Sequence record: MT446411.1
DNA: 64,000 nt
DNA from: Escherichia virus TH40
Reading direction: 5' to 3' (one strand)
A program made the position numbers and the translations under genes. A model generated the notes under the pieces. That model searched no databases and had not been told where the DNA came from. It saw only the letters and a program-made list of their open reading frames with translations. Within the stretch, counting starts at the first letter, position 1. Every line of letters starts with the position of its first letter. Shown here piece by piece: positions 1 to 36,051 of this stretch.

Positions 1-1122
1 TTCTTTGAACTTATACAGGTTCTTTGAGCGCTTGTTTTCCCAAATCGATGCCATGTTTTTAAGGATAATACCTTCAAGACCTTCATCCACGTATTTCTTA
101 TAGATAACTTTCGCTTCATCGAGATTGTTAACAACATGGTTTTCAATCAGAATCATGCGGTCAAAACCATGCAATACCACATTATCTGCAATCATCTTTT
201 CCAGAACAGCAAAACGCACATCATATTTCAGTGGATTGAGAATCTTAACATCAGAATAGACTTCAATCAGTGGAACATAATCCCAAACCTGGAATTTCAT
301 ACAAGAAGCTTCTGCCGCAGAAATAGTTCCTTTCAATGATTTGTTTGCCATGCCATTTGAAAAGGTTCTTGATTCTGCAAATTCTTTTGCCTTGCTAAGC
401 TCAGGCATATCGTCAAAAAGGAAGCCCAAACCGTCATTCTGGGGAGCTACTTTCTGCTCATGGTATACTAACTCGCCATCAATTAAAACGCCCTCAGGAT
501 GTCTCTCGCGCGCTTCACGGGTAGCTTCAATCAATTCCTTTTTAAGGAGGTCAAGCTTAAGGTATTCGTTACCAGCTCGGGATAGCAATCGAACATCATC
601 CAACTCATCGCCACGAACTTCTGCAAAACACCGAGCACCATCGGCTTTCAATTGTGCAAATGCCGGGAACTTAATGTTCTTAGCAATACCGGCTTCATCA
701 TAAGAAGAAGCGAGCATCTGTGGTTGTTCAGGAATTAAACCTTTCCAAACCTTATTCGCAATCGATACAGATGCACCACATTCCAGGTCACGCATCATCA
801 CACGGCGAAGAACTTCAACATCATCTTTTTTACCATCTGCGATATAACCAGATAATTCCTCGATTGCCGCATTACCTGTTAATTTGCGAGAGGCTAATGT
901 GAATTCGATAAAGTCAAGCATATCATCGATATTCAACATGCCAAAGCTTTGAGACGTTGCCCCAGGTTTTGGCCATTTCTTTATATAGAACTGGATGCCT
1001 TTGGAATATGTCAAACGATACACGCGTTTAAGGGTTTCATTGTCAGAATACGATTCCAGAATAGCTTGTTTCTCTTTAGTGGAATCGGTTGCAGCAATTT
1101 CATTTAAAATATCTAAAATCAT
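1..1122 (-). CDS. 30: ATP-dependent DNA ligase, N-terminal 374 codons (3' end of gene lies beyond window start)
   Basis: Minus-strand translation from ATG at 1120-1122 (SD GAGGTGA) reads MILDILNEIAATDSTKEKQ...FAQLKADGARCF...NLYKFKE with no stop down to position 1; matches T4 ligase N-terminus as recalled, including the KxDG adenylation motif. Confidence 0.9.
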   Translation of the reverse strand, partial: MILDILNEIAATDSTKEKQAILESYSDNETLKRVYRLTYSKGIQFYIKKWPKPGATSQSFGMLNIDDMLDFIEFTLASRKLTGNAAIEELSGYIADGKKDDVEVLRRVMMRDLECGASVSIANKVWKGLIPEQPQMLASSYDEAGIAKNIKFPAFAQLKADGARCFAEVRGDELDDVRLLSRAGNEYLKLDLLKKELIEATREARERHPEGVLIDGELVYHEQKVAPQNDGLGFLFDDMPELSKAKEFAESRTFSNGMANKSLKGTISAAEASCMKFQVWDYVPLIEVYSDVKILNPLKYDVRFAVLEKMIADNVVLHGFDRMILIENHVVNNLDEAKVIYKKYVDEGLEGIILKNMASIWENKRSKNLYKFKE

Positions 1123-1132
1123 TAATCACCTC

Positions 1133-1414
1133 TTAGTCGTTGACTCTATTATATGCCACGTCTTCCAAAAGCAAATCCAGCCGCTTATGATAAGTGAACA
1201 CAAATTTAGTTGCCCCGTCTGGTTTCATTTTGGTCATGAAGTGAACATAGATAAATCCTTGCTCAACGCATTCACGCCAAACGGGGTTATCTTTAGCCGG
1301 ATTAATATCAAACGAGTAATTATGATTCACATGACGAATAAACTGGTTAACATGACCGTAATCCATCGTGGTAGTTGGACCACGGTCAGAAATAGTATGA
1401 ACGACAAACATCAA
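1133..1414 (-). CDS. hypothetical protein (30.1 position)
   Basis: 93-aa ORF, same strand, ends 11 bp upstream of ligase start. Confidence 0.5.
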   Translation of the reverse strand: MMFVVHTISDRGPTTTMDYGHVNQFIRHVNHNYSFDINPAKDNPVWRECVEQGFIYVHFMTKMKPDGATKFVFTYHKRLDLLLEDVAYNRVND

Positions 1415-2235
1415 TTACCCCCTTGGCCACCGGTCGGTTGATTGTACCAGTATTCAATACCAGTACCTACACGCTGGCCATATTGATATGGATATGCTGG
1501 ATTATATCCAGGAGTCCACGGTTGACCAGGCTGCCAGCCTTGCTGCATTTGTTGTTGAAGGCGTCGAGTTTCACGAAACAGCTCTTCCAGTTTACGGAGT
1601 TCATCTGGAGTGAATTCTGGTTTGACCGGTTCATCTTTGTGTTTCAGTTTAAGCTGTCCAGCAACATCGTCCCAATTAAAAACTTTGGAAGCTGTTTTAG
1701 GAATAGCATCACGTTCGCCGCGGGCCATCCAATAAACCGGAACCTCGAGAATTTCACTCGCATGGTCGCAATGGTGGGCAAGGTCATCAATATAACAAAT
1801 GACATTATATTTGGTCTTCGCTTTCTGAAACAAATCTTCTTTAGAAGCTGTATGACCACACATCATCACTTCTTTAAATGCCCCAGGGAACAAAGCATTC
1901 AGGTTGAATTGACGATTCAGGCGTGCGTCAATGGAATCACCCAGGGCTGTAACAGCCACAAAATCATATTGCTCTTTGAGGTTATTAATAACCCTTAATG
2001 CATCCGCATAAGGAGACAAATAGCGAATAAAGTCTGAACAGTTATATTTTTCAATTAACTGCGCGCCTAACTCTTCATCACAATTGAAAAGTTTACCAGG
2101 GGTCACAAATTTTTCATCCTGAATCATCTTAAGGATATGTTCCAGGGGTAAATTATATTTTTGAGCGAAATAAGGTAAGCCAGACTGCCATGACAAACAT
2201 ACGCCATCAATATCTGTTAAAATAACGGGTTTCAT
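1411..2235 (-). CDS. HAD-superfamily hydrolase-like protein with Q/P/G/Y-rich C-terminal tail
   Basis: N-terminal ILTDIDGV (DxDGx HAD motif I); 4-nt stop/start overlaps with both neighbours. Confidence 0.6.
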   Translation of the reverse strand: MKPVILTDIDGVCLSWQSGLPYFAQKYNLPLEHILKMIQDEKFVTPGKLFNCDEELGAQLIEKYNCSDFIRYLSPYADALRVINNLKEQYDFVAVTALGDSIDARLNRQFNLNALFPGAFKEVMMCGHTASKEDLFQKAKTKYNVICYIDDLAHHCDHASEILEVPVYWMARGERDAIPKTASKVFNWDDVAGQLKLKHKDEPVKPEFTPDELRKLEELFRETRRLQQQMQQGWQPGQPWTPGYNPAYPYQYGQRVGTGIEYWYNQPTGGQGGN

Positions 2236-2699
2236 AATGCATCTCTCAATTGGTTAAGTATGTCAATAAATTCTTGTTCAGTCAATATTGTATCATGAAC
2301 AGTAAGGTGGCTCGCCATCGAATGCTTTAAAACTTTGCCTTTTGTGGATTGTAACGCATTGCGGAATCCTTGGTTCTGGAGCGCTGCTTCAAAATATGCA
2401 TTTGTATACAGCTCTTTCCATGCTGCAGAGTATCTTGAAAAGGGAATTCCAAGCCAGAAAAGCGTCCCACGGTCCGCAGCTCTTGCATAAGCTCTTCCAC
2501 TTTGCTGGGCGGCCAATCCGGACATCCCAAATATACGTTTTTGTTGTTCAACATTTCTCACCTTGCATCCTTGTAGGAAGCCTTCAAGACCTCCAAACTG
2601 GATACCCTCCATAACAAAAGGCCATTTAGCAAAGTTACTTAATGCACATGATGGCCATGGGAAATTGCTTCTGATTTCTAACTCAGACATCTTTGACAC
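2232..2699 (-). CDS. hypothetical protein
   Basis: 155-aa ORF in co-directional array, ATGA overlap with downstream gene. Confidence 0.5.
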   Translation of the reverse strand: MSKMSELEIRSNFPWPSCALSNFAKWPFVMEGIQFGGLEGFLQGCKVRNVEQQKRIFGMSGLAAQQSGRAYARAADRGTLFWLGIPFSRYSAAWKELYTNAYFEAALQNQGFRNALQSTKGKVLKHSMASHLTVHDTILTEQEFIDILNQLRDAL

Positions 2700-2895
2700 T
2701 GATAATCTCTACATCAGCCCAATGACCATAACCAGGTAAACGGTCTTTAATAGATAATCCGCCATCAGATTTCAGCATTTTAATTGTTTTAGTATATGGT
2801 TCAATATTTCGGGCCCATGGACTTACATCAGTCACGCGATAAGTAACTTCGACCATTTCTGTTCCCAAAATTTTCTGAATCAGTTTCTTAAACAC
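2683..2895 (-). CDS. hypothetical protein
   Basis: 70-aa ORF in array. Confidence 0.4.
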   Translation of the reverse strand: MFKKLIQKILGTEMVEVTYRVTDVSPWARNIEPYTKTIKMLKSDGGLSIKDRLPGYGHWADVEIISVKDV

Positions 2896-2896
2896 A

Positions 2897-3091
2897 TTAT
2901 CCTCGCTTTAAACATTTGATTACAGACAACTCACCACCCATGCGAACGTCTTCAGTTCCATCAACCCACAAGACTGCATATGCTTCTTTAATTTGGGTAT
3001 TGTCTAATTTAAACGCAGGCAGGACCTTTGAAATCATTCCAGGAATACCCACACCTTTTAACTGAACAGTTTGTGATAAGAATAATTTCAT
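2897..3091 (-). CDS. hypothetical protein
   Basis: 64-aa ORF in array. Confidence 0.4.
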   Translation of the reverse strand: MKLFLSQTVQLKGVGIPGMISKVLPAFKLDNTQIKEAYAVLWVDGTEDVRMGGELSVIKCLKRG

Positions 3092-3432
3092 TAGAACCTC
3101 ATCTGGAAACCGTGTGATTTAACATTACCGCCATTAATATCAGATGAATTAATTTCACGTGCTGCAATTGGGGCAATATCAATGTCGCGTCTAAGCTTGG
3201 TGATTGCCAGAGTATCGCGTCCATTAACAGTCCGGAATTCTAGTGGGCAAACTACATCAACATAGTTCTTAATGGAATCACGTGTTGGTTCACACCCAGC
3301 AGGAACATTAGGGCCTTTTTTAGAGAAAACAACTTCACAGAAATTTTTACGTGTATCAAAGTAAGTAGTCATAAACATAGTATTTTCCTCAAGGGGCTTT
3401 CGCCCCCATTTAAGATTAGATATCAAATTCAT
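3091..3432 (-). CDS. hypothetical protein
   Basis: 113-aa ORF in array. Confidence 0.45.
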   Translation of the reverse strand: MNLISNLKWGRKPLEENTMFMTTYFDTRKNFCEVVFSKKGPNVPAGCEPTRDSIKNYVDVVCPLEFRTVNGRDTLAITKLRRDIDIAPIAAREINSSDINGGNVKSHGFQMRF

Positions 3433-3781
3433 TAAGAACTACATCAAAGATTGCTTCCAGGTGTTCAGGTTTTGCTTTGTTGCTCAGGATGTGACGAATC
3501 CAAGTTTTAACCAGAAGCTTGCGATTAACACCATTCCAGCAAGGATGAGTCCCTAAATCACGCTCACGGAAATCATCATCTAATGCGATTTTGAATACCG
3601 AACCTTCCATCGTGATTGAAAGAGTGATACCATTTTCAAATCGCATATAAACGTAGTTAGGAGTCATATACTGTTCAATTTCACACACTGAACCGTTTTG
3701 ATGTTTCCACAAGCAAATAACTTCAGAAGAACCTGGGATGCAGTTAGAAACATATTTGCGTTCAAAGTTGATGTAGTTCAT
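3416..3781 (-). CDS. hypothetical protein
   Basis: 121-aa ORF in array. Confidence 0.45.
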   Translation of the reverse strand: MNYINFERKYVSNCIPGSSEVICLWKHQNGSVCEIEQYMTPNYVYMRFENGITLSITMEGSVFKIALDDDFRERDLGTHPCWNGVNRKLLVKTWIRHILSNKAKPEHLEAIFDVVLNEFDI

Positions 3782-3852
3782 TTTATTCTCCAGTTGTTTT
3801 CATTTGTTGGTACAGGTCTATAATATCATAACCTGTACCAAAGTAAACTGTT

Positions 3853-4221
3853 TTATGCGACTTTAATCCAATTATCTAAATTTAATTCACCCTTAGCTTT
3901 CATTTTTTCAATCAGAAGGTCTGCAGTGGTGCGACCATTTTGATACCATGTAACATCTTCAGAATAACCAGTTTCTTCATCTTCATAGGTCTTACAACGA
4001 ATCTTACCCAAAATCAAAGTTTTCAGTTCGTATGTATCACCAGTAAAAAAGTTTGTTACCATAATTTTCCAAGAGAAGTCATCAGAAGGACCTTCTGGAG
4101 TCATGCAACCTACAAATTCAAACTGCTCTTTATACAAGTGCCATTGCATCTCTTTAGTTTCGATTGCTTTGTAGCCGTCGTGGTCTTTACCTTTGATGTA
4201 TGAGTTAAGATTGATTTTCAT
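3853..4221 (-). CDS. hypothetical protein
   Basis: 122-aa ORF; early promoter cassette and GGAG SD immediately upstream. Confidence 0.5.
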   Translation of the reverse strand: MKINLNSYIKGKDHDGYKAIETKEMQWHLYKEQFEFVGCMTPEGPSDDFSWKIMVTNFFTGDTYELKTLILGKIRCKTYEDEETGYSEDVTWYQNGRTTADLLIEKMKAKGELNLDNWIKVA

Positions 4222-25438: not shown

Positions 25439-25446
25439 TATAAATA
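25439..25446 (+). promoter_or_regulatory. T4-type late promoter (TATAAATA) for gene 34
   Basis: Exact TATAAATA 32 bp upstream of ATG 25478. Confidence 0.65.
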
Positions 25447-25477: not shown

Positions 25478-28400
25478 ATGGCCGATATTTTAAAACCAGC
25501 ATTCAGAGCAACATCCGGTCTCGATGCTGCTGGTGAGAAAGTCATTAATGTCGCAAAAGCTGATTACTCAGTTTTATCAGACGGCATTAACGTAGGTTTC
25601 TTTATAGAAGAAAACACAGTTCAACAATATGATGCAACACGCGGATACAAAAAGAACTTTGCAGTTATTAATGATAACCGTATTTGGGTTGCTCAACGTG
25701 ATATTCCGGCACCAGCTGGAGCATTTACCCCTCAGTATTGGTTAGCAACTCGTACTGACCCTAAATGGGAAACTGTTGCATCTCCAACTCGTCAGCTTAG
25801 CTCCGGGGAATTTATCGCAGTCGACTCAGCTGCAAGCTTTACCACATTTACATTGCCTCCGAACCCGACTGATGGTGATACCATCGTTATTAAAGATATC
25901 GGCGGTAATACCGGTTATAATGAAATTAAAATCCAGTCAAGCAACGTGCCTGGCCAAGGTAACCAAAAGATTGTTCGCTTTGGTAATCAGTATTCAGAAG
26001 TTTTAATTACCAAACCATTCTCTTATAACATGCTTATCTTTTCAAACCGCTTATGGCAATTTTGGGAAGCAGGTAACGAAGAACGTGGTATCAGAGTAGA
26101 ACCGTCGACTGGTCGTTTCCATGCACAAGCTGGCGACTTTATTATGCGTCGTTATACAACTGGTGCACCGATTACTTTCATTCTTCCTAAGTATGCAAAC
26201 CAGGGTGATATTGTCAAATCTGTTGATATCGATGGCATGGGGCCAACGTTCCACCTGATGGTTGAAACCTTTGACACCAGTTCCAGTCTTGATAAAGTTG
26301 GTCAGCATCAAATGGAATTCCGCACCACAGGTGATGGTTTCTTCGTTTATGATGCTGCCGAAAAACTCTGGCATGTTTGGGACGGTGATTTTAAAACTCG
26401 TCTTCGTGTTATTCGCGACAGCGTTAAACTTTTACCAAACGAAAGTGTCATTGTATTTGGCGAAGATAACTCAACTCCGGCAACGATTAATATCGATTTA
26501 CCAACGGATGTTTTGCAAGGCGACATTGTTAAAATTGCATTGAACTATCTCCGTAAATCACAGACTGTTAATATAAGAGCTGCTGCTGGTGATAAGATTG
26601 CATCCGACATTAAATTACTGCAATTTCCTAAACGCTCCGAGTATCCACCAGATACAACTTGGGTATTTGTTGATTCATTGACCTTTAACGGTGACATCAG
26701 TTATACTCCGGTTATTGAATTGTCTTATGCAGAAGATAAAGTGTCTGGAACAAGTTATTGGGTTGTTGCTCAAAACGTTCCGACTGTTGAACGAGTTGAC
26801 TCATTAAATGATTCCACGCGCGCACGTCTTGGTGTTATTGCTTTGGCAAACCAGACTCAGGCAAACGTTGACCATGAAAATAACCCAGAGAAAGAACTCG
26901 CAATTACTCCTCAGACTTTGGCTAACCGTGTTGCTAAAGAGAACCAACGAGGCATTGCCAGAATCGCAACGACTGCCCAGGTAAATCAGAACAGTGATTT
27001 TGCATTTGTTGACGATGTAATTATTTCTCCGAAAAAACTCAATGAACGTACGGCAACAGAAACGAGACGTGGGCTCGCAGAACTCGCCACACAGCAAGAA
27101 ACTGATGCAGGTGTAGATGATACCACAATTATAACTCCAAAGAAACTGCAAGCGCGTCAGGGCTCAGAATCGTTGTCCGGTATCGTGACTTACGTTTCAA
27201 CGACTGGTGCAACTCCTGCTGCTTCGCGTGAATTAAATGGTACAAACGTTTATAATAAAAATACGGTTAATCTGGTTGTTTCTCCGAAAGCTCTTGGCCA
27301 GTACAAAGCTACTTACACTCAGCAAGGCGCGGTTATTCTTGCGGTTGAAAGTGAAGTAATCGCTGGTACTTCTCAATCTGGTTGGGCAAACGCAGTCGTT
27401 ACTCCAGAAATGCTGCATCGCAAAACTGCTCTTGATTCCCGTATCGGTTTAATCGAGATTGCTACTCAGGTTGAAACAGATGCAGGAACCGATTATACCA
27501 GAGCTGTGACTCCTAAAACGTTAAATGACCGTAAAGCATCAGAAACGTTAACCGGCATAGCCGAGATTGCTACGCAATCAGAATTTGATACTGGAACTGA
27601 TGATACTCGTATCTCAACTCCATTAAAAATTAAAAATAGATTTAATAATACTGCTCGTACTTCTGTTAATGCATTAAGTGGTTTAGTAGAAACAGGGACG
27701 CTCTGGGACCATTATAGCCTGAATATTCTTGAAGCAAATGAGACTCAGCGTGGCACAGCAAGATTAGCAACTCAGGGTGAAGTCAATACTGGCACTGACG
27801 ATAAAACAATCGTTACTCCGCTTAAATTGATGTCGAAAAAAGCCACTGAAAATGCCGAAGGTATTGTTCGCATCGCGACAAACGCAGAAGCAACTGCCGG
27901 TACATCGAAAGTTCTGGCCATCAGTCCGTCTGCGCTGAAATATATTGCACAAACGGAAACAACCTGGGAAGCATCTGAAACACTGCGTGGATTTGTTCGT
28001 TTATCTTCTGGTGCAGCCACTTCGGCCGCAACTACAACGACTGGTGCAGGATTTACATATGCAAATGGTGCGTATACCCCGGACCCAAGTAAACTGGTTA
28101 GCTACGCAAAATCTGGATATGCAGTTTCGCCTTACGAATTAAACCGCGTATTGCAAAACTTCTTACCGATAAATGCGATGGCTGTTAATGCTGAAAAACT
28201 GGATAACCTCGATTCGACCCAGTTTATTCGTCGTGATATTGCTCAGACTGTTGAAGGTGTATTAACCCTTACTAAGCAGACAAATATCTCTGCTCCGGTT
28301 GTATCGACGAGCACTGCGGTGTTTACTGATGTAACGGCTGGTACTTCGACGTTCGGAACTGTGAATGTTGTTAATGGAACTAACAAGTGGAAAATCACTG

Positions 28401-29434
28401 CTCCTTCCGCCGGAACGACAATGACTATTGGCGATACGACTAACGTATTGACATTAAACACCGCCTCGGGTAATGTTGCTGTATTGAACAACCTCAGCGC
28501 CGGAAACGATGTTCAAGCCAAAAATAATTATGTTCTAAATGGTCGTACTATCGCAACTACGACGGGTGAAGTTTCTGGTGCAACTTTGTCTCTGGGTGAT
28601 AACTCACAGAATTTAGTGCTCAAAACTCTTGATGCTGGTAATATCATAGCAAATGGTGGCGGTGCATTTAAAGTTCTGACCGAGAAAAACGCAGTAGAAA
28701 TTGTTGATAGAAACTTTGTTAACCAGGCTGGTGATACAATGTCTGGTGTGCTCCGTGTAAATGCTCCGGTCCGTGTATTTGGTACAAAACCGAGTCTTAT
28801 TGCACAAGCTCCGACTGCTGATACTGTTGGTTTCTGGTCTGTCGATATCAATGATGAACCGACTTATAGTCAGTTCCCTGGTTATTGGACAATGAAGTTA
28901 AAACGTCAAGTAAACATTGATACGGTTCAAACTAAACCTGCTGGGGTAACTGATGAAGTTTGGAATGCTTCTGGTTGGTTAACTGAAAACGGAACTTTTG
29001 CCTCGCCCGCTATTCGTTATCGTACTGATGATGGTACACTCGGTGATGAAGTATTAGGTAGCTCTGGACAGAAACTGCGCGGAACATGGTTTGACTATTC
29101 GGTTCGTGATAAACAAATTAAATATCCTGGTACATTAACTCAGTTCGGTAATACGCTGGATTCATGCTATCAAGATTGGGTTTGCTATCCTACTGGATTA
29201 AACGGTGGTACTATTCGTTATACTCGCACATGGCAGAAAAATAAATCAGCCTGGACGACTTTCGCAATGGTTTACACCGCGGATAACCCTCCGTCTGCAG
29301 AGGATGTTGGTGCATTACCAGCTGACAACACAACAATGGGGAACTTGACCATTCTTGATTGGTTACGTATCGGTAACGTGCGTATCATCCCGGACCCGAC
29401 CACTAAATCCGTTAAGTTTGAATGGATTGAATAA
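25478..29434 (+). CDS. 34: long tail fibre proximal subunit
   Basis: 1318-aa ORF at head of the plus-strand tail-fibre operon. Confidence 0.9.
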   Translation: MADILKPAFRATSGLDAAGEKVINVAKADYSVLSDGINVGFFIEENTVQQYDATRGYKKNFAVINDNRIWVAQRDIPAPAGAFTPQYWLATRTDPKWETVASPTRQLSSGEFIAVDSAASFTTFTLPPNPTDGDTIVIKDIGGNTGYNEIKIQSSNVPGQGNQKIVRFGNQYSEVLITKPFSYNMLIFSNRLWQFWEAGNEERGIRVEPSTGRFHAQAGDFIMRRYTTGAPITFILPKYANQGDIVKSVDIDGMGPTFHLMVETFDTSSSLDKVGQHQMEFRTTGDGFFVYDAAEKLWHVWDGDFKTRLRVIRDSVKLLPNESVIVFGEDNSTPATINIDLPTDVLQGDIVKIALNYLRKSQTVNIRAAAGDKIASDIKLLQFPKRSEYPPDTTWVFVDSLTFNGDISYTPVIELSYAEDKVSGTSYWVVAQNVPTVERVDSLNDSTRARLGVIALANQTQANVDHENNPEKELAITPQTLANRVAKENQRGIARIATTAQVNQNSDFAFVDDVIISPKKLNERTATETRRGLAELATQQETDAGVDDTTIITPKKLQARQGSESLSGIVTYVSTTGATPAASRELNGTNVYNKNTVNLVVSPKALGQYKATYTQQGAVILAVESEVIAGTSQSGWANAVVTPEMLHRKTALDSRIGLIEIATQVETDAGTDYTRAVTPKTLNDRKASETLTGIAEIATQSEFDTGTDDTRISTPLKIKNRFNNTARTSVNALSGLVETGTLWDHYSLNILEANETQRGTARLATQGEVNTGTDDKTIVTPLKLMSKKATENAEGIVRIATNAEATAGTSKVLAISPSALKYIAQTETTWEASETLRGFVRLSSGAATSAATTTTGAGFTYANGAYTPDPSKLVSYAKSGYAVSPYELNRVLQNFLPINAMAVNAEKLDNLDSTQFIRRDIAQTVEGVLTLTKQTNISAPVVSTSTAVFTDVTAGTSTFGTVNVVNGTNKWKITAPSAGTTMTIGDTTNVLTLNTASGNVAVLNNLSAGNDVQAKNNYVLNGRTIATTTGEVSGATLSLGDNSQNLVLKTLDAGNIIANGGGAFKVLTEKNAVEIVDRNFVNQAGDTMSGVLRVNAPVRVFGTKPSLIAQAPTADTVGFWSVDINDEPTYSQFPGYWTMKLKRQVNIDTVQTKPAGVTDEVWNASGWLTENGTFASPAIRYRTDDGTLGDEVLGSSGQKLRGTWFDYSVRDKQIKYPGTLTQFGNTLDSCYQDWVCYPTGLNGGTIRYTRTWQKNKSAWTTFAMVYTADNPPSAEDVGALPADNTTMGNLTILDWLRIGNVRIIPDPTTKSVKFEWIE

Positions 29435-29442
29435 GAGGTAAT

Positions 29443-30573
29443 ATGGAAAAATTTATGGCAGAGTTTGGACAAGGATACGTCCAAACGCCAGTTATATCAG
29501 AAAATAATGCCGTTAAATTTAAAATGAGTATAGCAGGGAGCTGTACTCTTTCCACGGTGAAATCGTATATCAAATTTCAGGACGAACGAATCGGGCCAAC
29601 TACTTTTGGTAATGGTCTGACTCTATTGGAAATTGATACAACTACGAATAAAATTGTTAACACGAAAAACTATTCATTAACCAGCACACACGATGCAATC
29701 AGCCAGGCATTAATTACCTTTGTGGAATCTGTTCCAGCCGGAAGATTGATTGCTTTTATTTCTTCAGGGAAACTAAACGCTTCACAGACATTAATTGACT
29801 GGATGCGATTAAAGGGGTCAAAAGCATTCCCCGAGAAATGGTTGATTGATAAAGTTGACACATCATACTCGGCTTTTTACATAACTGGCAGGAACGTAAT
29901 TGTTTCAGAGCACGTTAAGTATAATGACAGGAAGTTGGTTGAAGACGTTTCAACACCGCTTGAAGTCATTTATGATACCTTTAGTGATATAGGAGCAACA
30001 GGCTATCCTGTGCGCATAACGGAAGACGAGAGCACGTATTCATCAACAGGTGATGGAACACCAACCACAATTAAAAGGTTCCCCACAGAGGACCTGGTGA
30101 CTCCTATGGCTGACTATAACCTTTTACCTTTGGATGTGCTTTACTTGAAGTTTCAGATGTCATTTGATGCTGCTCTGAAAGCCGCCGGGACTGTAAGGAC
30201 TTCGGTTCGATTCTTTAAAAGCCCCAGCACTTCTCCTATATCAAATACAAACATCGATATTGCAACAAACGTTCCAGCTGGTGCATGGGCGAGTTTTGAA
30301 AGATATGTCGAGATTCCAGCAGGAGCTGATGGCTTTACGGTAGTAACATCAAGAACTGTAGCTGTGGGAACAGGGTCAATACGCAATATTGTTATTGGTG
30401 AGATAACCAGAGGTGACTCGGCATTCAAACCAGCTGAATTTGGTGTCAATGGCATAAGGATGTCATATGCAAACGATGCAACAAATACAGGCAATACAAT
30501 TGTAACATTCCCGGATGCACAAGCTCCACGCGCGGGCAAGATTTATGCAGCCGAACTTCGAGAAAAACAATAA
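29443..30573 (+). CDS. 35: tail fibre hinge connector
   Basis: 376 aa, immediately after gene 34. Confidence 0.85.
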   Translation: MEKFMAEFGQGYVQTPVISENNAVKFKMSIAGSCTLSTVKSYIKFQDERIGPTTFGNGLTLLEIDTTTNKIVNTKNYSLTSTHDAISQALITFVESVPAGRLIAFISSGKLNASQTLIDWMRLKGSKAFPEKWLIDKVDTSYSAFYITGRNVIVSEHVKYNDRKLVEDVSTPLEVIYDTFSDIGATGYPVRITEDESTYSSTGDGTPTTIKRFPTEDLVTPMADYNLLPLDVLYLKFQMSFDAALKAAGTVRTSVRFFKSPSTSPISNTNIDIATNVPAGAWASFERYVEIPAGADGFTVVTSRTVAVGTGSIRNIVIGEITRGDSAFKPAEFGVNGIRMSYANDATNTGNTIVTFPDAQAPRAGKIYAAELREKQ

Positions 30574-30596: not shown

Positions 30597-30604
30597 TATA
30601 AATA
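30597..30604 (+). promoter_or_regulatory. T4-type late promoter (TATAAATA) for gene 36
   Basis: Exact TATAAATA 37 bp upstream of ATG 30641. Confidence 0.65.
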
Positions 30605-30640: not shown

Positions 30641-31288
30641 ATGGCTGATTTAAAATTAGGTTCAACCGCCGGAGGTTCAGTCCTTTGGCATCAGGGTAAT
30701 TTCCCTTTAACACCAGTTAGTAATGATGTATATTACAAAACTTATAAAATTTATTCCGAATATAATAAGCCACAGGCAGTCGATAACGATTTTGTTTCAA
30801 AGGCTCTTGGTGGAAACTATAAAGCGAACGTATATTTTGAGCAAGGCCTGACCTTTAACGATACAAATGGTTATGGCATTAAACTCGGAGCAAGAACTGG
30901 TGGCACACCATTTACGGCTTCATTTCGTATAAAAGGCCCGTTTGGGTTCGAAACCGAAACAGGCACGCCATTTATTATTTTTGACCCTGATACTACAACC
31001 GGAGCCAAAAGATTCACGGTTATGGGCGATACATTAGGTCGCCAAGTTTATGACGAATCTGGTCGAGTATTTTCTCCAGGGAATACTCCGTCGAAAGCTC
31101 AAGTTGGTTTAGGAAACGTAACCAACCAACAACAGGTGGAACTAAATAATAGTACATTGCAAACAATGACAGGTAACTTGTCAGCGCCCAATTTCTTCTC
31201 TAGGAACCCTGCATCAGACCCGGCTCACGTGCCTCGTTTTGACCAAATCGTTCTTAAAGACTCCGTACAAGACTTTGGATATTATTAA
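30641..31288 (+). CDS. 36: long tail fibre distal connector
   Basis: 215 aa, precedes gene 37. Confidence 0.85.
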   Translation: MADLKLGSTAGGSVLWHQGNFPLTPVSNDVYYKTYKIYSEYNKPQAVDNDFVSKALGGNYKANVYFEQGLTFNDTNGYGIKLGARTGGTPFTASFRIKGPFGFETETGTPFIIFDPDTTTGAKRFTVMGDTLGRQVYDESGRVFSPGNTPSKAQVGLGNVTNQQQVELNNSTLQTMTGNLSAPNFFSRNPASDPAHVPRFDQIVLKDSVQDFGYY

Positions 31289-31296
31289 GAGGCATT

Positions 31297-34200
31297 ATGG
31301 CTACTTTAAAACAAATACAATTTAAAAGAAGTAAAATTGCTGGTGTCCGCCCGGCGCCAACAGTTCTTGCTGAAGGTGAACTGGCTATCAACCTGAAAGA
31401 CCGCTTACTTTTTACTAAAGATGACACCGGCGCCATCATCGACCTTGGCTTTGCCAAAGGTGGTAATATCGACGGTAACGTTATTCATAAAGGAAATTAC
31501 AATCAAACCGGTGATTATACCCTGAATGGTACTTTTACCCAAACTGGTAATTATACAGCTACTGGAAACATATCAGCGAATGGTGATATTAAAACCTACA
31601 ATCGCCTAATATCGGATAGTGGCGAAGTTTTGGTACGTAGTAATGGTACTGCACATGTTCGATTCCAAGGTTTAACTGATGGCCGTGAAAGAGGCATAAT
31701 TTATGCACCTGCAAGCCCTGGAAATACCAAGCAATCCTTGACCGTTCGTGTCCAGGATTATACTAATTCATCATTTAACACTTTTACATTCAACGGCGAC
31801 GGCTTATTTTATGCTCCATCTATTTCTGGTGGAACATCAATAAAATCCCCGCAAATTCTGACCGATAAAGTTATTACAAACGGGAAGAAGGCTGGGGATT
31901 ATGATATCTATTCGATGGCTGATAATACTCCATTTGCAGAAGGCGAAACGGCTATTAACCACCTCCGTGTTATGCGAAATGCTGTAGGAGCAGGTATTTT
32001 CCACGAAGTTAATGTTAATGACGGAATAACCTGGTATTCCGGAGATGGCTTAGACACTTATCTTTGGTCGTTTAACTGGGCCGGTGGATTGAAAGCGGGT
32101 CATTCTATTGCTGTTGGCCTTCCTCACGGTTCTAAAAATTATTCAGAAATGGGCACGGCTTCTATTGCTCTTGGTGATAATGACACCGGGTTAAAATGGC
32201 ACCAAGATGGATATTTTTTTACGGTAAACAACGGTACAAAAACTTTCCTTTCCGGTCCGGCGGAAACTACTAGTCTTAGAAAAATGGTTATGGGTTATTC
32301 TGTAAATGGTACTGATTTGACAACGCCACCAGCAGAAAACTACGCCCTGGCAACTGTAGTTACTTACCATGATAATAACGCTTTTGGTGATGGTCAAACC
32401 CTTTTAGGATATTATCAAGGCGGTAATTACCATCACTATTTTCGTGGTAAAGGCACTACAAACGTTAACACCGCAGGCGGATTGTTAGTTACTCCAGGTG
32501 ATATTAATGTTACCGGTGGTTCGGTTAATATCGACGGCCGCAACAATGCATCTACTCTGTTGTTCAAAGGATATACTACAGGAAGTAGTTCAGTTGATAA
32601 TATGACTATCAGCGTTTGGGGTAATACCTTTACTAATGTCGATGGTGACCGTAAAAATGTAATGGAAATATCTGATGCCACCAGCTGGATTCAATATTAC
32701 CAACGTCTGACTTCAGGTTCTATCCAAAGCCATTTAAATGGAACTTTGGGCGTAAATGAAAGTATAAATGTCGGCCAGGAAGTTAACGTCTCTGGCACTA
32801 TTGCCGGTAATGCGGTCAATGCACTTCGTATTTGGAACGACGATTATGCCGCTATTTTCCGACGTTCAGAAGGTAGTCTTCATATTATTCCTACCGCCTT
32901 TGGTGAAGGTAAAACTGGGGACATCGGTCCACTTCGCCCGTTTAGTTTGGCTTTAGATACTGGTAAAGTTACTATTCCAGATTTACAGTCAAGTTACAAT
33001 ACGTTCGCTGCAAACGGCTATATTAAATTTGTTGGCCATGGTGCAGGCGCAGGTGGATATGATATTCAATACGACCAAGCAGCTCCCATTTTCCAGGAAA
33101 TCGATGATGATGCCGTAAGTAAATATTACCCAATTGTTAAGCAAAAATACCTTCAAGGTAAAGCTGTGTGGTCTTTAGGTACTGAAATTAGCTCAGGTAC
33201 ATTCGTTATTCATCATCTGAAAGAAGATGGAACACAGGGTCATACATCAAGATTTAATGCTGATGGTACAGTTAATTTCCCGGATAACGTGCAGGTTGGC
33301 GGCGGTGAAGCTACTATTGGCAAAAATGGTAACATCTGGTCTGATATCTGGAAAACGTTTACTTCTGCCGGTGATGTAACCAATCTTCTTGGTGCTGTCT
33401 ATAGCCGTGTTTCAAAAGAAGGCGATACGCTGACCGGGCGCTTAACTCTTAATGCAAACTCGGATGCTATTGTTATTAACAGTGCTGCAACCGAATCCGG
33501 TTATGTGAAAGGACAAAAAGCTGGTGTTGATAACTGGTATGTAGGCAATGGCGGCGCTGATAACGCCCTATCGTTTTATAGTTTCCGAACTAATTCAGGC
33601 GTTAATATTCATAATAGTGGGGAAATTGCTTTAGCTCCTCAAGGGTCGGATACTTTTTATTTTAATAGGGACCGTCTTTATATAAAGGGTTCACAATGGG
33701 CTGCACATCAGGCTGGCGATTGGGGAAACCAATGGAAGCAAGAAGCTCCTGTGTTTGTAGATTTTGGTAATGTTGGTAATGATAGTTATTATCCGATTAT
33801 CAAAGGAAAATCTGGTATTACTAACGAAGGATACGTATCCGGTGTAGATTTTGGTATGCGCCGCATCACTAATACATGGGCCCAAGGTATTATTCGTGTA
33901 GGTAACCAGGAAAATGGCTCCGACCCGCAAGCTATCTATGAATTCCACTCTAATGGTACTTTTTATGCTCCGAGCTTACTTAAGAGCAACAGAGTATCGG
34001 CTGGTGGTGGAGACCCTGTATGGACTGGACCATGTATTGTTATCGGCGATAACGACACCGGATTGGTATGGGAAGCAGACGGTATTTTCAACGCATATGC
34101 AAACGGTCAAGGTGTGTTTAGTTTCCGCGCTGGCCTTGCTCAGACATTTGGCAACGTGTCCCTTAACGTTAACGCGGGTATGTATGTTCGCGATAACATT

Positions 34201-34542
34201 GACGTTAACGACGTTTATATTCGTTCTGATATTCGTTGTAAGTCGGAAATTAAGCTTATTGATAACGCCCAAGAGAAATCTAAACTCTTAGGCGGTTATA
34301 CTTATTTGCTTAAAAACTCCGTTACTGATGAAGTTAAACCGTCTGCAGGTTTAATTGCTCAGGAAGTTCAAGAAGTATTACCTGAACTTGTGACTGAAGA
34401 TAAAGAGACCGGCTTACTTCGTTTGAACTATAACGGTATTATCGGTTTAAATACTGCTACTATCAATGAGCATACTGACGAAATCAAGGAATTGAAATCT
34501 GAAATTGCTGAATTGAAAGCATTAATTAAATCATTATTATAA
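31297..34542 (+). CDS. 37: long tail fibre distal subunit with C-terminal S74-type intramolecular chaperone domain
   Basis: N-terminus [16 protein letters not shown]...[12 protein letters not shown] matches T4 gp37 as recalled; C-terminal ~105 aa carry SDIRCK...[15 protein letters not shown]. Confidence 0.9.
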
Positions 34543-34546
34543 GAAA

Positions 34547-34571
34547 GGGCCTTCGGGCCCTGGAGGTTTTT
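34547..34571 (+). terminator. hairpin between genes 37 and 38 (attenuator or terminator candidate)
   Basis: GGGCCTTCGGGCCC followed by TGGAGGTTTTT; the SD of gene 38 is embedded. Confidence 0.35.
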
Positions 34572-35360
34572 ATGGCAGTAGTAGGAATTCCCGGTTGGAT
34601 TGGAACATCAGCAGTGGCTGAAACAGGTCAACGTTGGATGACAGCAGCTTCTAGAGAATTGCGTCTTGGTAACCCATCTTGGATGTCGCAATTTGCTGGT
34701 CGGTCCCGTGAGATTATTCACACCCTTGGCGCAGACCACAACTTTAACGGGCAATGGTTTAGAGACCGTTGTTTTGAAGCCGGTGCCGCACCTATTGTGT
34801 TTAATATCACCGGTGATTTAGTATCTTATACTAAAGATGTTCCATTGTTCTTTATGTACGGTGATACCCCTAATGAATACGTTACTTTGAATATTCACGG
34901 CGGGGTCCATATGTGGGGACGTGGTGGTAACGGTGGGACCCGTGTTTGGATAGCAGGTACAAATGGTGGTGATGTAATTCAAAACGACATTGGAGGCCGA
35001 CTCCGTATCTGGAACTATGGCGTTATAGCTTCAGGTGGTGGCGGCGGCGCCGGATGTGCTTCAAATAACTCTTGGCTTGAAGCAGGTACAGCCGGTGGCG
35101 GCGGTGGTAGACCATATGGATTAGGTGGTACTAATGGCGCCGTAATGCCTGGCGGCAACGCTAGTTATACCGGACCAGGTGGCGGTGGTAGCTTTGGCGG
35201 ACAGTGGGGTGGTGGTAATGGTGGCGACGCAGGCGGGGCTGGTGGCGGCGCTTACGGTCGAAACGTTACATACGGCTCGCAAGGCGGAGCCGGGCGCGCG
35301 GTATTCGGAAGTTCTCCTTCATGGGGCGCGACAGGCACTATCTACGGCTCATGGTTATAG
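34572..35360 (+). CDS. 38: glycine-rich tail-fibre tip adhesin (T2-type gp38)
   Basis: 262 aa; conserved N-terminus [11 protein letters not shown]...[22 protein letters not shown] then poly-Gly blocks separating variable segments. Confidence 0.8.
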
Positions 35361-35371
35361 TACATAAGCGC

Positions 35372-35379
35372 TATAAATA
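35372..35379 (+). promoter_or_regulatory. T4-type late promoter (TATAAATA) for holin
   Basis: Exact TATAAATA 19 bp upstream of ATG 35398, with AAGGAG SD between. Confidence 0.6.
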
Positions 35380-35397
35380 TCTTTAAAGGAGAAAAGT

Positions 35398-36051
35398 ATG
35401 GAACCAAAAGTAGGAATATCAATACCCGACCTACTTTTTGGACTTCTTGATAGAATTTTTAAAGATAATGCGACCGGGAAAGTTGTTTTTTCCCGGGTAC
35501 TAGTTATTGTTCTATTATTTTTAATGGCGGTAATCTGGTATAAAGGTGATGCACTTTTAGATGCGTACAGGGATGCTTCATATGCCTCATACACTGAAAT
35601 GATAAGGCAAGACCAGGATAACAGATTTAAAATTGCAGCTATCGAGCAAATCCAGATAGTCCACTCGTCAAGTGGAGCAGACTTTACAGCAATATATTCC
35701 TTTAGACCAACTAACCTTAACTACTTTGTGGATATGGTGGGATACGAGGGAATATTGCCTGATACAGTCGACGAAAAAAATTTAGGTGGGTTTCCAATAG
35801 ATAAGACTTCAGCGGAATATTTGGCGGGGGTTAATGGTAATTATTTTGAATCCAGTGTGGAATCTGTATTCTTACCAACAAAGAAAAAAAGCAGCTTCAC
35901 ATATATGTTCAGCTGCCCATTCTTTAATTTGGAAAACGTTTATGCAGGCACAGTCTCACTGTACTGGTATAAGCAAAAACCCGACCTTGGTTTTGATAGG
36001 CTTTCTTCTATGTGTGGACAAGCAGGTCGTACGCTCGGGCGTACACGTTAG
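35398..36051 (+). CDS. t: holin
   Basis: 217 aa; DLLFGLLDRIFKDNATGKV then one TM helix; YSFRPTNLNYFVD and FNLENVYAGT match T4 holin T as recalled. Confidence 0.9.
   Translation: MEPKVGISIPDLLFGLLDRIFKDNATGKVVFSRVLVIVLLFLMAVIWYKGDALLDAYRDASYASYTEMIRQDQDNRFKIAAIEQIQIVHSSSGADFTAIYSFRPTNLNYFVDMVGYEGILPDTVDEKNLGGFPIDKTSAEYLAGVNGNYFESSVESVFLPTKKKSSFTYMFSCPFFNLENVYAGTVSLYWYKQKPDLGFDRLSSMCGQAGRTLGRTR

Follow-up and report, generated by a model that had tools for sequence, protein, structure and literature searches.

Does the long tail fibre of Escherichia virus TH40 end as in phage T2, where the C-terminus of gp37 is removed and gp38 binds the new tip and sets receptor specificity, or as in T4, where gp38 acts as a non-structural assembly chaperone? 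The window (the whole 64,000-nucleotide stretch of DNA that was analysed) contains the T-even long-tail-fibre cluster g34-g35-g36-g37-g38-t, with all genes on the plus strand and in the canonical order according to the ORF map and domain searches:

25478-29434, plus strand: g34, 1318 aa (ORF map and domain searches)
29443-30573, plus strand: g35, 376 aa (ORF map and domain searches)
30641-31288, plus strand: g36, 215 aa (ORF map and domain searches)
31297-34542, plus strand: g37, long tail fibre distal subunit precursor, 1081 aa (ORF map and PHROG 1699)
34572-35360, plus strand: g38, T2-type tail fibre adhesin, 262 aa (ORF map, Pfam, PHROG 2056 and PDB)
35398-36051, plus strand: t, holin, 217 aa (Pfam Phage_holin_T, E 1.8e-66)

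The g37 product matches PHROG 1699 ('long tail fiber protein distal subunit') from end to end (E 0). The g38 gene is placed directly 3' of a g37 with an S74 module and 5' of t, and the same layout is found in JS98, T2, and T6. The stretch 34225-35360 begins with the first base of g37 codon 977, which encodes the serine of SDIRCK, and ends with the last base of the g38 stop codon. We consider it very probable that the phage, a JS98-like (Dhakavirus-related) coliphage, here encodes the tip with which a long tail fibre of the T2/T6/S16 type binds its receptor. This tip arrangement is already known and is a textbook feature of T2-type Tevenvirinae, and finding it here is of little weight beyond correct annotation. 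The arrangement is reportedly known from work on T2, K3, and Ox2 in the Henning laboratory in the 1980s, and the tip structure is said to have been solved for S16 in 2018, by Dunne et al., and for PP01 in 2026.

The C-terminal part of gp37 is divided as follows:

34225-34539, plus strand: intramolecular chaperone/autoproteolysis module, gp37 residues 977-1081 (105 aa), from Pfam PF13884, 6F45_A, and the MYRF ICA domain
34225-34395, plus strand: Peptidase_S74 core, gp37 residues 977-1033 (Pfam PF13884), followed by a helical tail

The module makes up the final 105 of the 1081 residues of the gp37 homologue, that is, the extreme C-terminus of the fibre protein. When gp37 was compared with the Peptidase_S74 profile of Pfam (PF13884), residues 977-1033 matched profile positions 1-58 of 58 with a score of 46.5 bits (E 4.4e-12), against a gathering score of 22 bits. 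The last 180 residues of gp37 match 6F45_A, the crystallised fragment of S16 gp37, with an E value of 4.8e-31 as a single sequence, and a four-sequence profile of the gp37 C-terminus matches the S16 gp37 of 6F45 with an E value of 3.7e-70. The self-cleaving ICA domain of human MYRF (7DC3) was also reached, with E values of 0.003 for the single sequence and 3e-9 for the four-sequence profile. The full-length profile match above the Pfam cut-off and the homology to S16 gp37 bear out the original prediction, which had placed an S74-type module in the last ~105 residues of gp37. With endosialidase-type chaperones (K1F endoNF and MYRF ICA), the module shares the full-model profile match, the Ser-x4-Lys at the start of the domain, and a position C-terminal to a trimeric fibre; the likeness to endoNF rests on Pfam family membership, and by PDB sequence only MYRF 7DC3 and the phage fibre 8JOV were reached in this domain class.

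A single-sequence AlphaFold2 model of gp37 residues 939-1081 had a mean pLDDT of 42.9, which is too low for use of its fold. For the module, a beta-rich core with a trimeric bundle of helices behind it is predicted, a fold that has its support in sequence homology. Comparison of the module codons with those of six relatives from three genera revealed 12-18 synonymous and 0-3 non-synonymous differences, and the chaperone module is under purifying selection.

Both domains of a T2-type adhesin are present in gp38. Gp38_N (PF21721) matches residues 1-42 with 74.1 bits (E 8.6e-21) and GP38 (PF05268) matches residues 47-262 with 271.1 bits (E 1e-80), the Pfam cut-off being 25 bits for each. The protein also matches PHROG 2056 ('tail fiber protein; host specificity') with an E value of 1e-105. 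Its best match among solved structures is the receptor-binding domain (RBD) of PP01 gp38 (PDB 9V85; E 2e-74, 64% identity over residues 39-260), and S16 gp38 (6F45_D) is matched with an E value of 1.9e-49. The amino acid identity of gp38 is 99.6% to JS98, 94% to PhAPEC2, 64% to T6 and to the PP01 RBD, 50% to T2, and 49% to S16. The N-terminal part is the following:

34572-34697, plus strand: N-terminal attachment domain of gp38, residues 1-42, with W9, W22, and W37 (Gp38_N PF21721 and S16 alignment)

The three tryptophans have aligned counterparts in S16 gp38 and are conserved, as is the C-terminal SPxWxxxGxIxG motif, in an alignment with T2, T6, S16, PP01, and three other phages. In S16, the base formed by gp37 has three equivalent pockets that receive the tryptophans of gp38 (PMC6851490). 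The two domain matches, the two matched adhesin structures, and the retained tryptophans agree with the earlier description of gp38 as a T2-type adhesin with a conserved N-terminus. By analogy, gp38 would be a component of the virion and would act in receptor binding.

The reference loci of T2 and T6 have the same two-part architecture as the window, with Peptidase_S74 at the gp37 C-terminus (60.7 and 42.9 bits, respectively) and Gp38_N plus GP38 in gp38, and their VYIRSD.R.K motif is nearly identical (VYIRSDSRLK in T6). They differ from the window in the hypervariable loops of gp38 and in the chaperone modules, which are 32-37% identical. Neither part was found in T4: its gp37 C-terminus showed Collar and Phage_fiber domains but no S74 domain, and BLASTP detected no similarity between the window gp38 and T4 gp38 (E 19). 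The locus is thus T2-type rather than T4-type, as had been proposed from its sequence. A T4-type locus, in which gp38 would be absent from virions and the gp37 C-terminus would bind the receptor, is extremely improbable. Its sole support is that the JS98, PhAPEC2, and Bp7 homologues are labelled 'assembly catalyst', and these labels are legacy misannotations; the note in the Bp7 record itself states that the gp38 of the T2 subfamily is the unrelated adhesin. The dissimilarity to T4 at both genes argues against such a function, as do the membership of the window gp38 in the adhesin family PF05268 and its matches to two adhesin crystal structures.

Some database records label this gene 'distal long tail fiber assembly catalyst'. 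Both in this phage and in the many records that carry the 'assembly catalyst' label, the name to use for gene 38 is tail fibre adhesin.

With a T2-type locus as the preferred reading, the position of the cleavage site and the nature of the exposed end can be considered:

34222-34227, plus strand: predicted autocleavage site, R976/S977 (alignment with the published S16 site)
34061-34224, plus strand: last ~55 codons of mature gp37, conserved distal end (jump in identity relative to PhAPEC2 and Bp7; 6F45_A alignment)

The Ser/Lys pair of the Peptidase_S74 family acts as a dyad. This S-x4-K pair (S977 and K982) is intact in the SDIRCK sequence of the window, which aligns with SDIRLK of T2, SDSRLK of T6, and (A)DLRAK of MYRF, and S977, D978, R980, and K982 are invariant in an alignment of the window with T2, T6, and S16. 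For S16 gp37, it is reported that the last 113 residues cleave themselves off once the trimer has formed, at DLNVS^SDRRIKK, and that the docking surface for gp38 is thereby exposed (PMC7917993). The S16 sequence DLNVS^SDRRIK aligns with DVYIR^SDIRCK in the window, which places the predicted scissile bond of gp37 between R976 and S977; the residue preceding it is Arg in the window, in contrast to Ser in S16. By the same analogy, the C-terminal module of gp37 would remove itself in this phage.

A module that is S74-like but retained, being degenerate or purely structural, with gp38 attached elsewhere or to the intact end, appears highly improbable. The PDB profile search did match the module to residues 340-437 of the chain 8JOV, a 'Putative tail fiber protein', which would fit retention if the module is present in that model. 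Against retention, the SDxRxK Ser/Lys motif is intact and shared without change with T2, T6, and S16, the homologous S16 gp37 is reported to be autocleaved with exposure of its docking surface (PMC7917993), and the attachment domain of gp38 is conserved together with its tryptophans. A self-removing module is the favoured reading, and mature gp37 is to be taken as residues 1-976.

Upstream of ~34061, the identity of g37 to PhAPEC2 and Bp7 is 40-65%, and at about this position it rises to 77-97%; the last ~55 codons of the mature protein, taken together with the chaperone module, are 92-100% identical to these two phages. This distal end aligns with the interdigitated domain of S16 gp37 in 6F45_A, and the role of the S16 gp37 domain as a docking base has been described (PMC6851490). 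The corresponding end in the window should become the docking base for gp38 once gp37 is cleaved.

The tip of the TH40 fibre would probably be assembled as follows. The g37 product would be made as a precursor of 1081 residues, whose last 105 residues would serve as an S74-type chaperone; starting at the C-terminal end, this chaperone would nucleate the formation of the trimer and the folding of the beta-helical fibre. The module would then remove itself by Ser977/Lys982 autoproteolysis between R976 and S977, and one copy of gp38 would cap the exposed trimeric end of mature gp37 (residues 1-976), with its three-helix attachment domain (W9, W22, and W37) plugging into three equivalent gp37 pockets. 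The Gly-rich blocks of gp38 would build a polyglycine-II sandwich of three layers, and the five hypervariable loops displayed on it would meet the outer-membrane receptor and set the host range. The cleavage, the 3:1 stoichiometry, and the presence of gp38 in the virion are carried over in this scheme from what is known of S16, T2, and S74 domains. The S16 tip (6F45) combines a beta-helical gp37 end, an autocleaving intramolecular chaperone (IMC), and a gp38 with a three-tryptophan domain, and S16 gp38 is monomeric, with a beta-helix and a polyglycine-II sandwich; the window is likened to both through sequence matches. Despite these shared features, the sequences have diverged: gp38 is only 49% identical to its S16 counterpart, and the end of gp37 only ~40%. 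No feature of the sequence contradicts a tip of the T2/T6/S16 type, and further literature on the mechanism is available (PMC12032242, PMC12892980, and PMC3157838).

The presumed specificity region of gp38 consists of five Gly-rich blocks and five variable loops:

34917-35306, plus strand: specificity region of gp38, Gly-rich blocks alternating with variable loops (alignment with T2, T6, S16, and PP01)
34917-34937, plus strand: Gly-rich block 1, residues 116-122
34938-34964, plus strand: variable loop, residues 123-131
35031-35051, plus strand: Gly-rich block 2, residues 154-160
35052-35093, plus strand: variable loop, residues 161-174
35094-35129, plus strand: Gly-rich block 3, residues 175-186
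35130-35177, plus strand: variable loop, residues 187-202
35178-35249, plus strand: Gly-rich block 4, residues 203-226
35190-35207, plus strand: variable loop inside the fourth Gly block, residues 207-212
35250-35282, plus strand: variable loop, residues 227-237
35283-35306, plus strand: Gly-rich block 5, residues 238-245

Glycine accounts for 26% of gp38 overall and for 37% from residue 110 onward, with runs at residues 155-159, 175-179, 203-206, 213-215, and 224-226. Positions G116-G121, G155-159, G175-179 with R180/P181, G203/205, and G215-224 are invariant in the window, T2, T6, S16, PP01, and others. Among 17 relatives, the mean amino acid identity is 64-91% in the Gly blocks and 23-46% in the variable loops, and insertions or deletions occur in 0-1 and 8-16 of the 17, respectively. 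The poly-Gly blocks separating variable loops, which had been described from the window sequence, are thus seen in the alignment, and the statistics of the relatives agree. The structure of S16 gp38 shows its Gly blocks as structural helices of the polyglycine-II type (PMC6851490).

Three further ORFs (34818-34982, 35121-35282, and 35179-35367) lie within g38 on the minus strand or in alternate frames. They were taken as by-products of GC and Gly-codon content, because the plus-strand frame is the conserved one.

The five variable segments correspond to loops A-E of PP01 gp38, as defined in PMC12892980. The PP01 protein binds OmpC, but its loop sequences differ from those of the window; at the position aligned with PP01 loop B (QANNWAGKYV), the window has a different sequence, and OmpC specificity cannot be assumed. 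The loops of S16 are likewise unrelated to those of the window, so that its receptor, OmpC, is not transferable. Because the aligned loops matched none of those of the T2, T6, PP01, or S16 adhesins, no receptor is assignable from the sequence, and a literature search on the JS98 receptor found nothing. Prediction or engineering of the host range of phage TH40 should aim at the five gp38 loops.

The DNA encoding the Gly blocks had been proposed to offer natural points of recombination and slippage for host-range switching. Besides the literal tract GGTGGCGGCGGTGG at 35094-35107, the gene has similar tracts at 35034-35048, 35178-35189, 35208-35216, and 35241-35249. The proposal that recombination takes place at Gly motifs is established and is backed by experimental crosses (Tetart et al. 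1998 and Trojet et al. 2011, as cited in PMC12032242 and PMC3157838). This part of the proposal stands with respect to the literature and to the presence of GGTGGCGGCGGTGG, but the only recent exchange detectable in the window involves the entire g38 and not an internal Gly tract (see below). In the specificity region, exact shared DNA runs of at least 14 nt between the window and divergent relatives were almost absent except for the close relative PhAPEC2, so the Gly tracts of the window appear to offer only short microhomology to distant adhesin genes.

Slippage fared less well. If the Gly-codon tracts were slippage-prone contingency repeats, variation in their phase or length would drive host-range switching; we regard this as very unlikely. 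A search of the window g38 with TRF at a score of at least 30 returned no tandem repeat (0 rows), perfect triplet repeats extend to 3 units at most, and every homopolymer is shorter than 5. Imperfect direct repeats (families D1, D2, and D7) do relate the Gly tracts to each other, as slippage would favour, yet the lengths of the Gly blocks are fixed among the relatives, with insertions or deletions in 0 of 17 for blocks 1, 3, and 4 and in 1 of 17 for blocks 2 and 5. Length variation is concentrated instead in the variable loops. The fixed block lengths fit the structural role of the Gly blocks as polyglycine-II helices, and also the report that T6 yielded no viable phage when single GRMs were deleted (PMC3157838). 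Two frameshifts occur within the specificity region of the deposited Bp7 g38, but these may be sequencing errors. The one supporting case is the related contig L012, which has a (TGGCGG)x4 run and an exact 51-nt tandem duplication (x2.3, 100% match) beginning in a Gly tract. This duplication copies one loop plus its Gly block, and demonstrates that neighbouring Gly tracts can undergo unequal exchange.

The exchange that is detectable in the window is seen in comparison with JS98 (Dhakavirus; EF469154 / NC_010105). Between the two gp38 proteins there is a single substitution (T to K in GRNVTYG), their genes differ at 2 of 786 nt, the IMC modules are 99% identical in protein sequence, and the gene order and intercistronic hairpin are the same. 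The g37-g38 DNA as a whole is 90.6% identical over query positions 550-4064 (86% of its length). In contrast to g38, gp37 is mosaic relative to JS98, with no megablast match in its first ~550 nt and ~10% divergence at 34005-34552. The adjacent 24 kb of the window are ~94% identical to phages DK-13 and MN01, which are the closest for the rest of the window. From this mosaic pattern and the affinity to DK-13 and MN01, the window phage is a different phage from JS98 that bears essentially the JS98 adhesin.

Over 34553-35699 (1147 nt, comprising the whole of g38 plus the initial 300 nt of t), the window and JS98 show 2 differences, whereas the left flank (34005-34552) diverges by ~10% and the right flank (35700-36036) by ~5%. 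This near-identity between diverged flanks indicates that the whole g38 cassette was exchanged recently. A nearly JS98-type adhesin on another backbone, together with the 94% identity to a Mosigvirus adhesin, exemplifies the exchange of adhesin cassettes within and across genera.

Further breakpoints may be traced in a comparison of 20 loci, in which the identities of the chaperone module and of the gp38 attachment domain covary (97-100% with 98-100%, ~60% with 51-56%, and ~32% with 76%), while gp38 residues 46-114 stay at ~95% identity in most of the loci. This pattern suggests that one breakpoint lies close to codon 45 of gp38 and another on the upstream side of the cleavage site. For such comparisons, codon alignments were used in place of the ends of tblastn matches. 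Many gp38 matches in tblastn end at residue 152, just 5' of a Gly block, and a reading of these ends as a recombination breakpoint was rejected because the low-complexity filter of BLAST hides poly-Gly, so that matches would be cut off at this point in any case.

The left side of the exchanged cassette borders on a hairpin between the two genes:

34540-34542, plus strand: g37 stop codon
34546-34561, plus strand: stem-loop AGGGCC-UUCG-GGCCCU (read from the sequence and folded)
34562-34566, plus strand: g38 Shine-Dalgarno sequence GGAGG

The stem-loop, which lies between the g37 stop codon and the g38 Shine-Dalgarno sequence, was flagged as terminator-like on both strands, and directly after it starts the stretch that is almost identical to JS98 (2 differences in 1147 nt). 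T2 and T6 also have a stem-loop between g37 and g38, in the same position as in the window but with changed stems (GAGGGC-UUCG-GCCCUC and GGGGC-UUU-GCCCC, respectively). The hairpin could conceivably be a functional element, tuning g38 translation or mRNA stability toward a 3:1 ratio of gp37 to gp38, or marking the left edge of an exchangeable g38 cassette, but we consider such a role doubtful. In a scan for sigma-70 promoters and terminators, the numbers of matches were not above the shuffled expectation. A pattern search located the late promoter motif at two positions around the fibre genes:

30597-30604, plus strand: T4-type late promoter consensus TATAAATA, upstream of g36
35372-35379: TATAAATA of gene t

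The pattern search found no TATAAATA between 30604 and 35372, and the copy at 30597-30604 is the nearest one upstream of g38. Because this copy lies upstream of g36, the genes g36, g37, and g38 probably form one late transcription unit.

Comparison of the window with the corresponding locus of phage JS98 revealed only two nucleotide differences, at 35269 and 35330, over positions 34553-35699. This near-identical stretch takes in the whole of g38, which encodes the T2-type adhesin, together with the first ~300 nt of the downstream holin gene t, and is flanked by sequences that diverge from JS98 by ~10% on the left and ~5% on the right. From these alignments, it looks like the whole adhesin cassette was recently exchanged between the lineage of the window phage and that of JS98.

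Among the related loci L001-L020, the identities of the C-terminal chaperone module of gp37 and gp38's N-terminal attachment domain co-vary (34225-34706 in the window), and residues 46-114 of gp38 remain steady at ~95% identity in most of these loci. Based on this co-variation, the predicted cleaved module and the docking domain of gp38 appear to travel together as a single unit spanning the gene boundary when they are inherited. At the other end of g37, the first ~550 nt (31297-31850) gave no match to JS98 at the megablast level and are matched by TH15, PHB12, PhAPEC2, and others. In pairwise alignment, the identity to JS98 falls to 49-58% at 31541-31810. The matches of the 5' end to other phages and the drop in identity to JS98 indicate that gp37 is, as judged from its sequence, mosaic, with three or more ancestries.

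The junction of g37 and g38 contains the following features:

34546-34561, GC-rich stem-loop (AGGGCC-UUCG-GGCCCU) between the g37 stop codon and the g38 ribosome-binding site
34562-34566, Shine-Dalgarno sequence of g38
34572, ATG start codon of g38 (+ strand)

In JS98, the loop alone is changed (CUCG). T2 and T6 have hairpins at the equivalent place with other stem sequences (GAGGGC-UUCG-GCCCUC and GGGGC-UUU-GCCCC, respectively). The 81-nt context of the hairpin showed no folding advantage over shuffled sequence (z = -0.34).

Nine matches to TATAAATA, the consensus of T4 late promoters, lie in the whole window (4.2 expected), including three in the tail-fibre cluster:

25439-25446, just upstream of g34
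30597-30604, just upstream of g36
35372-35379, just upstream of t

A pattern search of the window found no TATAAATA just upstream of g35, g37, or g38. This placement suggests g34-35, g36-37-38, and t as late transcription units.

The gp38 gene of one related contig (L012, IMGVR_UViG_2974787500_000001) carries a tandem duplication and a run of hexamers:

2001-2834, T6-like gp38 of 277 aa
2450-2473, (TGGCGG)x4 run
2462-2578, 51-nt unit duplicated exactly in tandem (2.3 copies, 100% match)

As a consequence of the duplication, GGGGGYYSPFSQMRLTF is present twice in the protein. Only one copy is present in its sister contigs, L013 and L016. Either unequal exchange between Gly tracts has given the L012 adhesin an additional loop and Gly block, or the duplication is an assembly artefact.

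In phage Bp7 (HQ829472; locus L003, 4230-5021), the deposited CDS annotated as gp38 lacks the canonical C-terminus beyond approximately residue 222. The expected sequences, ...GGGAPGRAVFGS and PTWGATGAIYGSWL*, are present in the other two frames, which points to two frameshifts in the record. Either the Gly-rich region was sequenced wrongly, or the gene is a true pseudogene.

Within the same gene cluster, residues 57-127 of gp35 (29443-30573) showed a sub-threshold Pfam match to ILEI (interleukin-like EMT inducer/FAM3 fold), scoring 26.3 bits (E = 1.1e-5) where the cut-off is 27.
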